A stretch of 32,000 nt of DNA, taken from Microcystis aeruginosa NIES-843. GTDB lineage: Bacteria; Cyanobacteriota; Cyanobacteriia; Cyanobacteriales; Microcystaceae. The position numbers and the translations under genes were made by a program. The notes beneath the pieces were generated by a model. It was given only the letters and a program-made list of their open reading frames with translations, did not search any database and had not been told where the DNA came from. The stretch covers positions 5,490,001-5,522,000 of the forward strand of contig NC_010296.1 in NCBI RefSeq assembly GCF_000010625.1, given 5' to 3'. Shown here one piece after another: positions 26,500-29,244 of the stretch. Every line of letters begins with the position of its first letter. Within the stretch, counting starts at the first letter, position 1.

Positions 26500-29244
26500 T
26501 TAGAGATGGTGTAACAATTGTGCTTTGATAATTTTTTCTGCGGGGTTGAGTTTGACTAATTGTGAACCTGTCCCGTCTTTACCCGTAACTGTCACAGTCT
26601 CTACCTCTAAGGGCAGTTTTCGATTCTGATTGGTACTTAATAACACTATACTCCCCTCCCGGGCCGCTACCATGGCCGCTAAACTATCCTGTTTGTTGAC
26701 GAATTGTAAAGCGGGTGAACCAAGATCGCCTAATTGTGATAAACGTAAATTCTCGATCGCCAGTCTTTTCCCGTAACCTAATCCCGAAATCAGCAGCAGA
26801 TTTTCCCGATGGGGGAGAGAAACACAGCCGGCTAGATGTTCCCCGTAGCGCAATCGCAAAATTGCTAAACCCTGAGCGGATTTACTCATCATTGGCAATA
26901 ATTCCTCGCGCACGGGATAACGCAACACCCGACCGCTACTGGTGGCGATCGCTAAGTCCAGACCCTCGTGAGTAAAAATAGCGCCATACAGGCGATCGTC
27001 TTCTTTCAATTTCATGAGGGACAAACCCCGACTACCAACCCCCTCTAATTCATCGATGGGAAGCCGCTTTATTCGCCCCTGTTGACTCAGTAAAAGCAAT
27101 TCTTGATTTTTTTGAGGTTCTGTCAAGAAAAATTGATTTAACACGGCTTCTGAATCTTTTTGGGCGGTTTTGGTCAGCAGACTGGAGATTAACACCGGTT
27201 GATTGTCTTTTGGAGGAACTTCCCGGGTAGCAATCGGGTAAGCTTTAGCATTATCGAGGATAACTAGGAAATTTTCCCGTTTTTCGATCGCCTGTTGATA
27301 GATAATTAAACCCCGGTCCGGCGCTCGCTCTTCCTCTGTCGTCCAACTAATTTTATCTTCGGCATCAAGCAATAAAATTGCATTTTCTGGGGGTTCTTGG
27401 GGCGTAAATAGGCTTAAACTCGGTGGATTCTCACTCTCAGGCTTTTTCTTAACTTTATTCTCCTGCTTTTTAACTTCTGCCTTGAAAGAGGGTGTAGGGT
27501 GTGGGGTGTGGGGTGTGGGGTGTGGGGTGTGGGGTGTGGGGTGTGGGGTGTGGGGTGTGGGGTGTGGGGTGTGGGGTGTAGGTAAGGAAACCTCTTTCGT
27601 CTCTGGTGGTGAAAATTTTTTCATCGGGACTGTCTCCTGTTTTTTAACAGCAGAATCCTGTTTCTTCCCTGCTGTCTCCTGTCTCCTGTCTCCTGTCTCC
27701 TGTCTCCTGTCTCCTGTCTCCTGTTTCCTGTTTCCCGACTTCCCAGTGGGAATTTTTGTCCGTCTGCTATCGGCGAATTTTTTCTTTAAAGAGCGCAATT
27801 CTTTTTTCAGAGACTTGAGAAACTCCTGACGGTTATGGAGGAGAGTTTCCAACTGTTGAATTTTTGCTTGCAATTCCGTCGCTTCCGTCTCTAATTTTTG
27901 TCTTTCCAAACCGGTTAAACGACGTAGGGGCATAGCCAAGATAGAATCAGCTTGAGCGTCACTAATGCCCAATTCTGCCTGAAAACGATACTTAGCCGTC
28001 GTACCATCGGGGGCATTTTTGAGAATATCCACCACTCGATCGATATTCTGCAAAGCTAATAATAAACCCTCGACTAGGTGTAAGCGATCGCTGGCCTGTT
28101 GCAACTCATCGCCATACTGACGGGTGAGAGTTGTTTCTCGAAAGCGCAAGAATTCCTGTAAAACTTGTTTTAAAGATAACTGCCGGGGTTGATTATCGAC
28201 CAAAGCGAGGATAATCGCCCCAAAATTAGTCTGTAGGGCCGTTTGTTGGTATAAAGCCGCCAAAACCTGCTGCGGTTGACTTTCCCGCTTTAATTCAATC
28301 ACCACCCGAATGCCTTCGCGATTGCTTTCATCGCGGATATCGGCAATTCCCTCCAATTTCCCTAAATTGACTAATTCGGCGATTTTTTCGATCCATGCCG
28401 CCTTATTCACCTGAAAAGGCAACTCAGTAACCACAATTGCCGTCCTTTCCCTTCGGCGCTTGCCCTCAATGATAATTGTTTCAGTTTTCGCCACTCCGCG
28501 CACGGGAATAATCCCCCTACCGGTGCGATAAGCCTCCCGAATGCCAGTATCATCTAAAATCTCGCCTCCCGTGGGAAAATCGGGACCGGGGATAATTTCT
28601 ACTAACTTTTCCTCGCTTAAATCGGGATTATCAATCAAAGCGATTAAACCTTCCACCACTTCCCCTAAATTATGGGGGGGAATATTAGTCGCCATTCCCA
28701 CCGCAATACCCGAACAACCATTAAGAATCAGTATCGGTAACTGAGCGGGTAAAACAACCGGTTCCTGTTGAGAATTATCAAAATTACTGCTAAAATTAAC
28801 GATAGCTTCGCTAATTCCCCCTAAAACCGCCTGATCACCGATGCCGGCCAAACGGGTTTCTGTATAACGCATGGCCGCCGGGGGGTCGTTATCGATCGAA
28901 CCAAAGTTACCATGGCCCGATAAAAGTGGGTAACGACTGGAAAAATCCTGTACCATACGAACCAGTGCCTCGTACACTGACTGATCGCCGTGGGGATGAT
29001 ATTTACCCAAGACATCCCCCACCACCCGCGCACATTTGCGAAAAGGGCGATCGGGAGTCAAACCCAGTTCGTGCATAGCGTATAATATGCGACGATGCAC
29101 TGGTTTTAGTCCATCCCGTACATCCGGCAAGGCTCGCCCCACGATCACACTCATGGCATATTCTAGATAGGAGCGTTCCATCTCTTGGTGTAAGGCCGTG
29201 GGTATAATTTGACCACTAGCTAAGAAATCCAGTTGTTTGGCCAT
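26500..29244 (-). CDS. DNA gyrase / topoisomerase IV subunit A family protein with a ~120-aa repeat-encoded insertion
   Basis: [32 protein letters not shown]...KYHPHGD...[19 protein letters not shown]. The C-terminal beta-pinwheel-like region has no recognisable GyrA box (QRRGGKG), so it may be the ParC-like paralogue. Confidence 0.9.
27489..27579. repeat. (A/G)GGGTGT x13 heptanucleotide array inside the GyrA/ParC-family CDS
   Basis: Counted by hand: 2 AGGGTGT plus 11 GGGGTGT units. Translated on the minus strand as (PHTPHPT)n. Confidence 0.95.
27669..27731. repeat. CTCCTGT-type heptanucleotide array (7 perfect + flanking variant units) inside the same CDS
   Basis: Read directly; translated on the minus strand as RRQETGD repeats. 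Confidence 0.9.

Follow-up and report, generated by a model that had tools for sequence, protein, structure and literature searches.

The window, that is, the whole stretch of 32,000 nt of Microcystis aeruginosa NIES-843 that was analysed, contains on its minus strand a ParC-like gene in which two heptanucleotide arrays are translated (Table 1). Tandem Repeats Finder placed the C-rich array at 27490-27579 (period 7, 12.9 copies, 98% matches), and an exact-pattern count for (A/G)GGGTGT gave 13 units at 27489-27579. The NCAGGAG array, with the limits given in Table 1, has a period of 7 and 9.1 copies with 98% matches, and contains, at nt 1521-1569 of the gene (window 27676-27724), the ACAGGAG unit seven times in exact form. 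The repeat search, the exact counts, the ORF and Pfam thus confirmed the statement of an earlier note on this DNA that both arrays lie inside a 914-aa minus-strand ORF of the GyrA/ParC family, and translation agrees with its in-frame reading as (RRQETGD)n and (PHTPHPT)n.

Table 1. Coordinates of the ParC-like gene, its repeat features and the other heptamer modules of the window.
Feature	Position	Strand	Description	Basis
ParC-like gene	26500..29244	minus	type IIA topoisomerase A subunit, 914 aa	ORF, Pfam, NCBIfam scores
Interdomain linker	27385..27774	minus	hypervariable, low-complexity, residues 491-620	end of N-domain homology, composition, allele variation
Right end of dispersed element	27481..27489	minus	coding strand TCTTTCAAG, encodes SFK after array	common to intergenic copies
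Inverted repeat around C-rich array	27484..27598		8 nt; GAAAGAGG 27484-27491, CCTCTTTC 27591-27598	direct reading of sequence
C-rich array	27489..27579	minus	13 units, (ACACCCC)x11 then two ACACCCT; translated (PHTPHPT)x4	repeat finding, sequence
Core of dispersed element	27584..27632	minus	unique, CAGTCCCGATGAAAAAATTTTCACC.CC.ACAGA.GAAAGAGGTTTCC	93.9% identical to intergenic consensus
NCAGGAG array	27672..27735	minus	translated (RRQETGD)n; Shine-Dalgarno-like AGGAG in every unit	repeat finding, exact count
Two-family module	5815..6060	+	between two minus-strand ORFs; G-rich mixed array, then CTCCTGA/CTCCCGAATACTGA array, without core
Second two-family module	12536..12689	+	between long ORFs; arrays of AGGGTGT and of GTGGGGAA, followed by CTCCTGA-type units; 26-nt anchor CTCCTAACCCCACCAACAAGCTTTTT at end
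(GGGGTGT)x5.7 array	19837..19876	+	between long ORFs
CTCCTGA array and anchor	24966..25020	+	end 15 nt upstream of kdpC-like start codon 25036
(GTGGGGT)x8 array	30748..30802	+	between long ORFs

The ParC-like protein and its linker

The breakage-reunion domain corresponds to Pfam PF00521 (DNA_topoisoIV) at residues 37-483 (E 6e-155), with the catalytic-tyrosine motif AAMRYTE at residues 123-129, and the solved GyrA structure 4ddq aligns with residues 15-501. The C-terminal part scores 66.5 bits against PF03989 (DNA_gyraseA_C; cut-off 27), as expected of a beta-pinwheel, the best repeat being at residues 714-752. No motif similar to the GyrA box (QRRGGKG) was found in the 914-aa protein, which is therefore not a GyrA in the strict sense. 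Its scores lie below the cut-offs of the NCBIfam equivalogs for GyrA (NF004043, 812 against 902; TIGR01063, 805.7 against 877) and for ParC (parC_Gpos, 575 against 813; parC_Gneg, 519 against 629), and above that of the generic subfamily PRK05561 (719 against 654). Orthologues form 120 clusters in Microcystis, with identities of 92-96%, and the order of genes around the locus is conserved in the Microcystis loci fetched.

Cyanobacteria have a second, ParC-like paralogue of GyrA, and the protein is of this type; its role, like that of its Synechocystis counterpart, may be that of a Topo IV or of a second gyrase. In Synechocystis PCC 6803 this second GyrA-like or putative ParC subunit is Sll1941 (PMC6560206, PMC9825172), which is accompanied by a true GyrA paralogue (PMC6560206). 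The 914-aa protein matches the published description of Sll1941, including the lack of a GyrA box in both proteins, and orthology is probable, the comparison having been made with that description. Residues 471-489 are similar to the published Sll1941 antibody peptide DRQERLKALKKELRGLKKK (PMC6560206). Peptide antibodies detected Sll1941 at ~101 kDa (PMC6560206), a size which suggests that its linker is extended too. For Sll1941, heptamer arrays and a dispersed element go unmentioned in both PMC6560206 and PMC9825172.

Homology with the N-terminal domains of solved GyrA structures stops at residue 501 and the first strand of the C-terminal domain begins near residue 622. Hence the low-complexity stretch lies between the two domains, where the earlier note had located it, and it is bounded by invariant flanks, GCCGATAGCAGACGGACAAAAATTC and GAGTTTAAGCCTATTTACGCCCCAAGA. 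Disorder-promoting amino acids make up 83% of residues 499-620 and hydrophobic ones 10%, against 49% and 34% in the remaining protein, a composition that makes the linker probably disordered. An AlphaFold2 model for which 15 Microcystis alleles had been aligned (mean pLDDT 34, pTM 0.27, above 50 only at residues 374-484) is silent on this point because the alignment is too shallow.

Cyanobacterial orthologues outside Microcystis carry low-complexity linkers of 40-80 aa, rich in K, S, T, P and E, and those of the nearest relatives (L002, L003, L041) measure 54-62 aa. The insert of ~120 aa described earlier is consequently a real low-complexity linker, but the excess specific to Microcystis amounts to ~35-90 aa. 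At the same site, arrays of other heptamers (AAAATCC, ACAATCC) are present in four Nostocales-type orthologues, and an array of an 8-mer in a Kamptonema orthologue. Judged from these sequences, the linker site is permissive.

The G-rich strand of the C-rich array matches a G4 motif (G4-N3). Since the gene is on the minus strand, the mRNA carries ACACCCC and the G-rich strand is the template, so that the earlier proposal of G-quadruplexes on the non-template strand had chosen the wrong strand.

A dispersed element inside and outside the gene

The two arrays are separated by a core of unique sequence of 49-52 nt, and the succession of NCAGGAG units, core, ACACCCC array and TCTTTCAAG end is found again, between genes, at independent loci of other Microcystis genomes. 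Three such loci were available in sequence (L111, L112/113 and L114/115), with the flanking order in common; the core of most gene alleles is 98-100% identical to theirs, and the TCTTTCAAG end follows the array in L111, L112 and L114 as it does in the gene. Among small ORFs, which are spurious, this end was found in all three reading phases, and the core peptide occurred in 84 of the best 120 small-ORF clusters, hence in at least 84 clusters. They include closed genomes and NIES-843 itself (P0137, known as a protein only); within the 32,000-nt window no second copy of the core was found. The element has given rise to roughly 190 small "hypothetical proteins" that are spurious, and the label "DNA gyrase subunit A" has wrongly been attached to some.

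The heptamer families themselves are more widespread in the window, where they occupy six loci, five of them in gaps between long ORFs, in the manner of dispersed STRR repeats. The array at 30748-30802 is 100% identical over 49 nt to the one inside the ParC-like gene, and the gene downstream of the array at 24966-25020 corresponds to one that, in the homologous locus, has a match to the KdpC Pfam family. The module at 5815-6060, which the earlier note (at 5817-6060) had equated with the insert, does show both families in the same order, G-rich and then CTCCTGN, but its units are variants (GGGGTGT/GGGGTAT/GGGGAAGT, and CTCCTGA instead of CTCCTGT) and the core is absent. The idea of a captured repeat module is supported, and by stronger evidence than that module offered, since the whole unit with its ~50-nt core recurs at independent intergenic loci.

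As a multi-copy sequence of ~110-260 nt, below 600 bp and devoid of a transposase, the element resembles a MITE. Its inverted repeat around the C-rich array is only 8-9 nt long (GAAAGAGG / CCTCTTTC), and the comparison of filled and empty alleles revealed no clean target-site duplication but either the replacement of a segment or a direct repeat of 16 nt, GTTAAAAARCAGGAGA. In the predicted fold of the intergenic consensus the GAAAGAGG and CCTCTTTC arms pair, with a stability not above that of shuffled sequences (z -0.56). Rfam gave no match in the window at gathering thresholds, nor in the three intergenic copies at E<=1; by this comparison the element is no described RNA family. The core found no match among phage genomes, plasmids and IMG/VR viral contigs, and a literature search returned no account of GGGGTGT/CTCCTGT arrays, of the core element or of any repeat within the parC-like gene of Microcystis.

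Allelic series, reading frame and selection

Alignment of orthologues, proposed in the earlier note as a check, established that unit number varies and that core and array are absent in some strains. The 120 Microcystis orthologue clusters contain 59 distinct linker versions of 95-149 aa. One to six TPHTPHP units, equivalent to 4, 7, 10, 13, 16 and 19 heptamers, were present in 90, 13, 5, 1, 1 and 1 clusters, respectively; the number of heptamers in the C-rich array was thus always 3n+1 in the listed orthologue proteins, with a mode of 4. Other in-frame changes are 63-nt duplications, (CA)n-type runs and a nested insert of 27-30 nt (PDVGGVGGV), which in alleles L096 and L105 reads C7-GATGTC-G7-TA-G7 within the linker array and which the allele of the window lacks. 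Core and array are missing from L001, L085, L089 and L094; three of these (L001, L085, L094) are complete genes, scattered on the tree built from the flanking domains. The segment of core plus array is dispensable.

The C-rich array of NIES-843, with 13 units against the mode of 4, is unusually long and pure, so frequent slippage would be expected of it. In simulations, gain or loss of one or two units in either array produced truncated products of 528-614 aa that end just before the C-terminal domain, and 3-unit steps left the frame intact. The earlier claim that only such steps are neutral holds, both in the simulation and in the natural alleles of 4, 7, 10, 13, 16 and 19 units. Rescue by the second array of a frameshift in the first was also considered, and it is impossible in the NIES-843 allele, which has stop codons between the arrays in both other frames.

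The reading frame was scored in a sample retrieved without regard to it, an exact 25-mer of the upstream flank yielding 28 metagenome contigs. Four of these 28 do not reach the downstream flank, and in three cases the contig ends within the arrays or at their edge. The remaining 24, together with two exact-protein loci, one genome locus and the window, make up 28 complete DNA loci, 27 of which are in frame, as are all listed orthologues from contigs >0.8 Mb. In the sole out-of-frame locus, L098 (VYLJ01000005.1, a short-read MAG contig), the array counts 5 units and the product terminates with PYTLFQGRS*, precisely the end obtained in the simulation; the locus is either a real allele or an assembly collapse. 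The intergenic copies serve as a reference: 48 small-ORF clusters with a recognisable right end are distributed over the phases 24, 17 and 7, against 22 to 1 in the gene (Fisher p = 1.2e-4 by loci, which are not independent, and p = 0.11 by distinct unit-number classes). Over 20 full genes, dN/dS was 0.022 in the N-terminal and 0.18 in the C-terminal domain. The ParC-like gene is functional, with both domains under purifying selection.

These results bear directly on the view that the arrays are assembly errors, or that the gene is decaying while a paralogue does its work. Short-read assemblies do break, and possibly collapse, at the arrays, and a true GyrA paralogue exists in cyanobacteria according to the Synechocystis literature (PMC6560206). 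However, dozens of independent assemblies, multi-megabase contigs among them, contain the arrays in varying unit numbers, the ORF is intact in a conserved gene order, and purifying selection on both domains is strong. An artefact or a pseudogene, which the earlier note had listed, together with an invariant unit number, among the findings that would refute its reading, is therefore effectively refuted.

Phase-variable contingency loci of Haemophilus, Neisseria, Campylobacter and others carry simple sequence repeats inside ORFs, and the ParC-like gene is like them in having an in-ORF tandem repeat with a non-triplet unit whose gain or loss shifts the frame. Were it such a locus, the 7-nt arrays would constitute a reversible switch generating subpopulations with a subunit of 528-614 aa devoid of the C-terminal domain and with altered decatenation or relaxation, possibly of use to a polyploid bloom-former. 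The position of the simulated truncations, the length and 98% purity of the NIES-843 array and the out-of-frame allele L098 (n = 1) would agree with this proposal. Moreover, Kampranis and Maxwell reportedly observed in 1996 that ATP-dependent relaxation persists with GyrA deprived of its C-terminal domain, so that a truncated product need not be null. Against a switch, in-frame and out-of-frame unit numbers are not both common, as the frame count above makes clear, and the single exception stems from a short-read MAG, contigs being prone to end at this locus. A search for the C-terminal domain recovered only fragments with N-termini inside or beside the arrays, and the two that were checked in DNA proved to be contig-start truncations, in frame upstream. 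A profile search for truncated topoisomerases with the 24-29-aa out-of-frame tail found none and revealed the dispersed element instead; its sensitivity is doubtful, given that in-frame full-length proteins sharing 15-20 residues with the query also went unlisted. The dN/dS of 0.18 in the C-terminal domain and a modal allele of just 4 units point in the same direction, and unlike contingency loci (mentioned in PMC4692102) the repeat lies mid-gene, not near the 5' end, in a housekeeping-type topoisomerase gene and not in a surface or restriction-modification gene. A reversible switch is thus very unlikely, and of the two possibilities raised earlier, a tolerated disordered linker or a slippage-prone switch, it is the first that fits.

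A third proposal concerns function of the insert itself, either because length and composition of the linker are selected as a tuning knob (positioning of the C-terminal domain, interactions, condensation) or because internal initiation produces a free C-terminal-domain protein. The core includes an internal ATG, M541 (27622-27624), 9 nt downstream of an AGGAG, and gene callers start there in intergenic copies and in truncated contigs. Furthermore, a long low-complexity linker is conserved across cyanobacterial orthologues as a feature, not as a sequence, and the non-repeat parts of the linker are conserved within Microcystis. Nevertheless, linkers of anything between 74 and 149 aa occur and no optimum is apparent, core and array including M541 are missing from several strains scattered on the tree, and the sequences are identical to intergenic repeats free of selective constraint. 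Such a function is improbable, if somewhat less so than the switch.

A probable tolerated linker filled with dispersed repeats

The preferred explanation, to which we assign a probability of roughly 0.75, is a tolerated, probably disordered linker composed of dispersed repeats and kept in frame through purifying selection. The arrays are real, translated parts of a hypervariable tether between the breakage-reunion and the beta-pinwheel C-terminal domains. A long low-complexity linker, common to cyanobacteria, would have been filled in Microcystis by the genus's own small dispersed repeats, namely the NCAGGAG units, the ~50-nt core with the ACACCCC array and TCTTTCAAG end and, in some strains, the nested C7/G7/G7 element. 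Recombination or gene conversion between heptamer arrays seems to have brought this material in, and to have removed and restored it time and again, and replication slippage would alter its length. Slippage by a number of units that is not a multiple of three would truncate the protein ahead of the C-terminal domain and be purged by purifying selection, which would explain why natural alleles differ by 21-nt (3-unit) steps. Linker length may affect the behaviour of the enzyme.

Ogata et al. are said to have described in 2000 Rickettsia palindromic elements in frame within protein-coding genes. The Microcystis insert, a dispersed element in frame in a conserved ORF that stays undisrupted, would likewise be selfish or slippage-prone DNA, presumably neutral, tolerated in a permissive linker. 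Both are small, non-autonomous, multi-copy elements, also found between genes, that add an extra peptide at a permissive site of a housekeeping gene (these and other MITE-type elements in coding frames are reviewed in PMC10969869). They differ in that the Rickettsia element is a palindrome of ~150 bp, whereas that of Microcystis combines a short core with two microsatellites of heptamers and has just an 8-9-nt inverted repeat; it changes length by slippage, and its presence or absence looks recombinational, not transpositional.

Tandem 7-nt units in many dispersed, overwhelmingly intergenic copies of variable unit number also characterise the cyanobacterial STRR or heptamer repeats. Heptanucleotide long simple sequence repeats are the subject of the Mrazek survey, as far as its summary in PMC4679880 goes, and G-rich quadruplex-capable heptamers of the GGGNATC and GGGGA(C/T)T types are known from Nostoc and from Xanthomonas (Rehm et al. 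2015, PMC4692102). In ORFs the G-rich strand of those heptamers is the non-coding one, as it is in the Microcystis ParC-like gene. In contrast to STRR repeats, the units here are GGGGTGT and CTCCTGT, packaged with a unique ~50-nt core, and are translated inside a conserved enzyme, where STRR-type repeats are reported to be under-represented. Finally, G/C-rich intrastrand triplex motifs are reported to occur in large numbers in strain NIES-843 of M. aeruginosa (Holder et al. 2015, PMC4666352). The C7-GATGTC-G7-TA-G7 insert of L096 and L105 has the same C-run/G-run/G-run layout, although this predicted motif is an accessory passenger of some alleles only, and the C6/C6/G6 element at 24512-24585 of the window has the mirror-image layout.

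The composite repeat element appears to be new as judged from the literature search, the MaeMITEa-h consensus sequences (PMC2779907) aside. It has practical consequences, because the locus breaks short-read assemblies and the element seeds spurious protein annotations, and the linker could provide a high-resolution strain-typing marker for Microcystis blooms. The linker finding opens no long-standing question. Should the 13-unit array and the NCAGGAG array with its seven exact units nevertheless act in NIES-843 as a mutational switch, with a polyploid mix of full-length and CTD-less subunits of which L098 would be a natural example, or should a separate C-terminal domain be expressed from the AGGAG and ATG of the element, chromosome decatenation or topology would be subject to repeat-driven modulation; we regard either as a long shot. 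Under the tolerated-linker explanation, the locus is a clear example from bacteria of a core DNA-topology enzyme that harbours, in frame, microsatellites of non-triplet unit together with a small dispersed element, and the natural series of 4-19 units, always 3n+1 in the listed orthologue proteins, would reflect selection filtering the products of slippage. Interdomain linkers can thus absorb the repeat families of the genome that carries them, and in cyanobacteria, to judge from the different heptamers of the Nostocales-type orthologues, they have done so repeatedly.

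The topoisomerase gene and its heptamer arrays

The 914-aa protein matches Pfam DNA_topoisoIV at residues 37-483, together with DNA_gyraseA_C. It falls under both GyrA and both ParC equivalog cut-offs of NCBIfam, passing only the generic PRK05561 subfamily, and contains no GyrA box; homology to solved GyrA N-terminal domains stops at residue 501, and the top database matches are Microcystis proteins labelled topoisomerase 4 subunit A or gyrase/topo IV subunit A. A 19-aa peptide just upstream of the linker is similar to DRQERLKALKKELRGLKKK, the peptide used for antibodies against Sll1941. 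In Synechocystis this is the second GyrA-like protein, or a putative ParC (PMC6560206; PMC9825172), and it was detected at ~101 kDa (PMC6560206). By this peptide resemblance, the gene would be the orthologue of Sll1941. A DUF218-family gene follows 3 nt downstream in the same direction, suggesting an operon, and a divergent single-domain response regulator lies upstream; the order of the three genes is kept in the other Microcystis loci examined.

Both heptamer arrays are inside this ORF (see the table). On the coding strand (ACAGGAG)x7 is followed by ~96 nt of non-array sequence, by (ACACCCC)x11 and by two ACACCCT units, translated as (RRQETGD)n and (PHTPHPT)n, and sequence and Tandem Repeats Finder agree with the earlier note, which had read these peptides at 27400-27790. 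Its prediction on slippage was borne out by simulation: one or two units more or fewer in either array gave 528-614-aa products ending before the C-terminal domain, and 3-unit steps preserved the frame in both. Compensating shifts are ruled out in the NIES-843 allele because stop codons lie between the arrays. The G-quadruplex, in turn, had been assigned to the wrong strand. With the gene encoded by the minus strand, mRNA and non-template strand are C-rich, and (GGGGTGT)13, the G4-capable strand, serves as template. As a class, the arrays fall under the cyanobacterial heptanucleotide repeats (STRR, long simple sequence repeats); related G-rich heptamers form G4 structures and are depleted from ORFs (PMC4692102; PMC4679880). 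No description of these arrays, of the element discussed below or of repeats in the topoisomerase gene was found in the literature. A 115-aa antisense ORF spanning both arrays is most likely a by-product of stop-free repeats and not a gene.

Among 20 complete Microcystis genes dN/dS was 0.022 for the N-terminal and 0.18 for the C-terminal domain; this excludes a pseudogene and shows selection on the C-terminal domain. The refuting case named earlier, an assembly artefact or a pseudogene, is effectively refuted.

Coordinates of repeats and associated features (window, or L-numbered loci compared)
Locus	Coordinates	Strand	Feature
Window	932-1501	+	ORF
Window	949-1104		78-nt unit twice in tandem, 97% matches, 5' end of ORF 932-1501
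Window	5817-5941, 12536-12571, 19844-19871, 27489-27579, 30756-30797	G-rich on +	G-rich heptamer arrays
Window	5963-6060, 27676-27724	CTCCTGN on +	CTCCTGN arrays
Window	12664-12689, 24995-25020		26-nt anchor
Window	24512-24585		37-nt unit, exact tandem duplicate
Window	25813-26496	-	DUF218-family gene
Window	26500-29244	-	topoisomerase ORF
Window	27482-27829	+	antisense ORF
Window	27490-27579		G-rich array, period 7, 12.9 copies, 98% matches (Tandem Repeats Finder)
Window	27622-27624		internal ATG (M541)
Window	27672-27735		second array, period 7, 9.1 copies (Tandem Repeats Finder)
Window	29327-29731	+	response regulator
L111	5056-5081		26-nt anchor
L114	1450-1475		26-nt anchor
L095	4899-4924		26-nt anchor
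L006	2261-2295		linker array
L020	4547-4574		linker array
L021	4565-4584, 4509-4547		linker arrays
L057	4547-4580		linker array
L005	2287-2357		linker array
L008	4515-4542		linker array
L008	1970-2025		(GGGGTGT)x8, gene flank

Relation of the linker insert to a dispersed element

A profile of the out-of-frame tail returned ~190 small (40-76 aa) Microcystis 'hypothetical proteins'. The core peptide is present in 84 of the best 120, most of which share one 24-aa start; this corresponds to the linker's non-array segment and array, after which the tails are unrelated. Closed-genome examples come from NIES-843 (protein cluster P0137) and strain Chao 1910 (three). At the DNA level three independent intergenic loci (L111, L112/113, L114/115) share the unit (TCAGGAG)n - CAGTCCCGATGAAAAAATTTTCACCCCCACAGATGAAAGAGGTTTCCTTTCC - (ACACCCY)n - TCTTTCAAG - TCAGGAG, and these parts recur in identical order in the topoisomerase gene. 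Judged by sequence, the gene thus carries one copy of a dispersed element as its linker insert, which supports and extends the captured repeat module of the earlier note. The core, a ~50-nt unique segment between the arrays, is 93.9% identical to the consensus in the window's gene and 98-100% in most other alleles. An 8-nt inverted repeat (GAAAGAGG / CCTCTTTC) flanks the C-rich array. The fold of the element was not significant. Nothing matching it turned up in Rfam, phages, plasmids or viral contigs, and the window holds no second core copy, heptamers alone recurring there. The closest analogue of the gene's fate are Rickettsia palindromic elements and other MITEs found in frame in genes (PMC10969869). 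The Microcystis element differs from these in combining microsatellites with a core and in that terminal inverted repeats and target-site duplication are not evident.

Among intergenic copies all three phases of the right end occur (24, 17 and 7 of 48 clusters), compared with 22 to 1 in the gene; Fisher's p was 1.2e-4 counting loci, which are not independent, and 0.11 counting distinct unit classes only. Intergenic copies carry AGGAG with an ATG 9 nt later, as at M541, and hence gene callers annotate the ~190 clusters of small proteins starting MKKFSPPQMKEVSFP (among them P0121-P0240). These ORFs look spurious, because their tails are unrelated and in all three phases; some clusters (for example P0151, P0154, P0233) are named 'DNA gyrase subunit A' through annotation transfer.

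Three loci (L094, L085, L089) have CAGACGGGAAGCAGGAG where others have core and array, and in L001 GTTAAAAAACAGGAGA is fused straight to ATAAAG, this 16-mer standing on each side of the core-array segment in filled alleles. No clean target-site duplication is visible between filled and empty alleles. When the flanking domains were placed in a neighbour-joining tree, each of three empty alleles was sister to a filled one; therefore, presence changed several times or was shuffled by recombination. Like the intergenic copies, the insertion point is bordered on both sides by NCAGGAG-type units, so that recombination or gene conversion between arrays, rather than transposition, would account for the exchange.

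The site has accepted other sequences. Inter-domain length is ~37 residues in canonical GyrA-type relatives of the locus set, and cyanobacterial orthologues of the paralogue have 40-80 low-complexity residues there. Nostocales-type loci (L006, L020, L021, L057) hold AAAATCC or ACAATCC arrays, read as NPKSKIQNPKS-like peptides, and the Kamptonema orthologue a GAGCAAGG x8.9 array; GACAAGGG is a further unit of these 7-/8-nt arrays, all translated in frame. Thus lineage-specific repeats were taken up more than once. The Cylindrospermum locus (L008) also has an array in the gene's flank.

Other repeats in the window

A 26-nt anchor, CTCCTAACYCCACCAACAARCTTTTT, ends CTCCTGA-type arrays at several unrelated loci, and GCCGCAAA or CAGTAAACC usually comes next; the copy beginning at 24995 stops 15 nt upstream of a kdpC-like start codon, and the element copy inside the topoisomerase gene is without it. 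The five G-rich and two CTCCTGN arrays have one strand orientation irrespective of neighbouring gene direction, which hints at a replication-related and not a transcription-related bias; GC skew over the window is weak and uninformative on this. The duplicated 37-nt unit, GATCCCCCCTTAATCCCCCCTTGATAAGGGGGGTGTC, has a C6/C6/G6 layout matching the G/C-rich intrastrand-triplex motifs that are reported to be abundant in NIES-843 (PMC4666352). An element of mirror-image layout, C7-GATGTC-G7-TA-G7, is nested in frame within the linker arrays of L096 and L105, reading PDVGGVGGV. The 78-nt unit contains ATGAAACGT, so the start of its ORF appears duplicated.

Linker variation and reading frame across Microcystis

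Among the best 120 orthologue clusters the linker, taken between two conserved flanking peptides, measures 95-149 aa and has 59 versions. TPHTPHP units number 1, 2, 3, 4, 5 and 6 in 90, 13, 5, 1, 1 and 1 clusters, equal to 4, 7, 10, 13, 16 and 19 heptamers of the C-rich array; the orthologue alignment that had been proposed thus gave varying insert length and unit number, in steps of 3 units. The mode is 4; the 13 heptamers of NIES-843 place it close to the upper limit. Further in-frame changes are 63-nt duplications, replacement of the NCAGGAG region (GAGSSQKGAGTKEQS), nested PDVGGVGGV and (CA)n-like runs. The 933-aa allele P0003 (linker 149 aa) keeps an altered repeat peptide in frame, suggesting secondary dinucleotide-type expansions, (CA)n or (ACNCCN)n, within the heptamer array.

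An orthologue protein list favours intact genes; hence DNA was sampled blind to frame by exact search with a 25-mer of the upstream flank, which is invariant; 28 metagenome contigs were retrieved. The 28 complete loci scored were 24 of these contigs, two loci obtained through exact protein matches, one locus from a genome, and that of the window. The frame was intact at 27; the exception, L098 (VYLJ01000005.1), has 5 units, is out of frame and ends PYTLFQGRS* as simulated, and it is not separable from a collapsed array because short-read assemblies struggle at this locus. The out-of-frame-tail profile found no truncated alleles, with doubtful sensitivity, as full-length in-frame proteins sharing 15-20 residues were also unlisted. 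A phase-variation switch driven by array slippage, one of the two readings offered earlier, is mechanically possible, but with 27 of 28 loci in frame it is very improbable.

Assemblies of Microcystis short reads break systematically at the linker locus. Four retrieved contigs do not reach the downstream flank, of which three break off within or at the arrays, and many database 'partial' proteins comprise the C-terminal domain only, with N-termini inside or just after the array. Contig ends in or beside linker arrays are frequent in metagenomes and MAGs (L084, L090, L095), and C-terminal-only proteins (P0241, P0242, P0253-P0255) form clusters of up to 48 member sequences. For two such proteins starting at the internal ATG the contigs extend 75-130 nt further upstream, and this stretch is in frame. 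A functional role for this AGGAG-ATG, or for linker length, is unlikely.

The NIES-843 linker (residues 499-620) has 83% disorder-promoting and 10% hydrophobic residues; the AlphaFold model was too low in quality to inform on it. The other reading offered earlier, a tolerated linker, fits these results. With a probability of about three in four, the segment is a tolerated tether, probably disordered, into which dispersed repeats of Microcystis itself have been taken up; it would change through slippage and array-mediated recombination, the products being filtered by purifying selection on the downstream domain.
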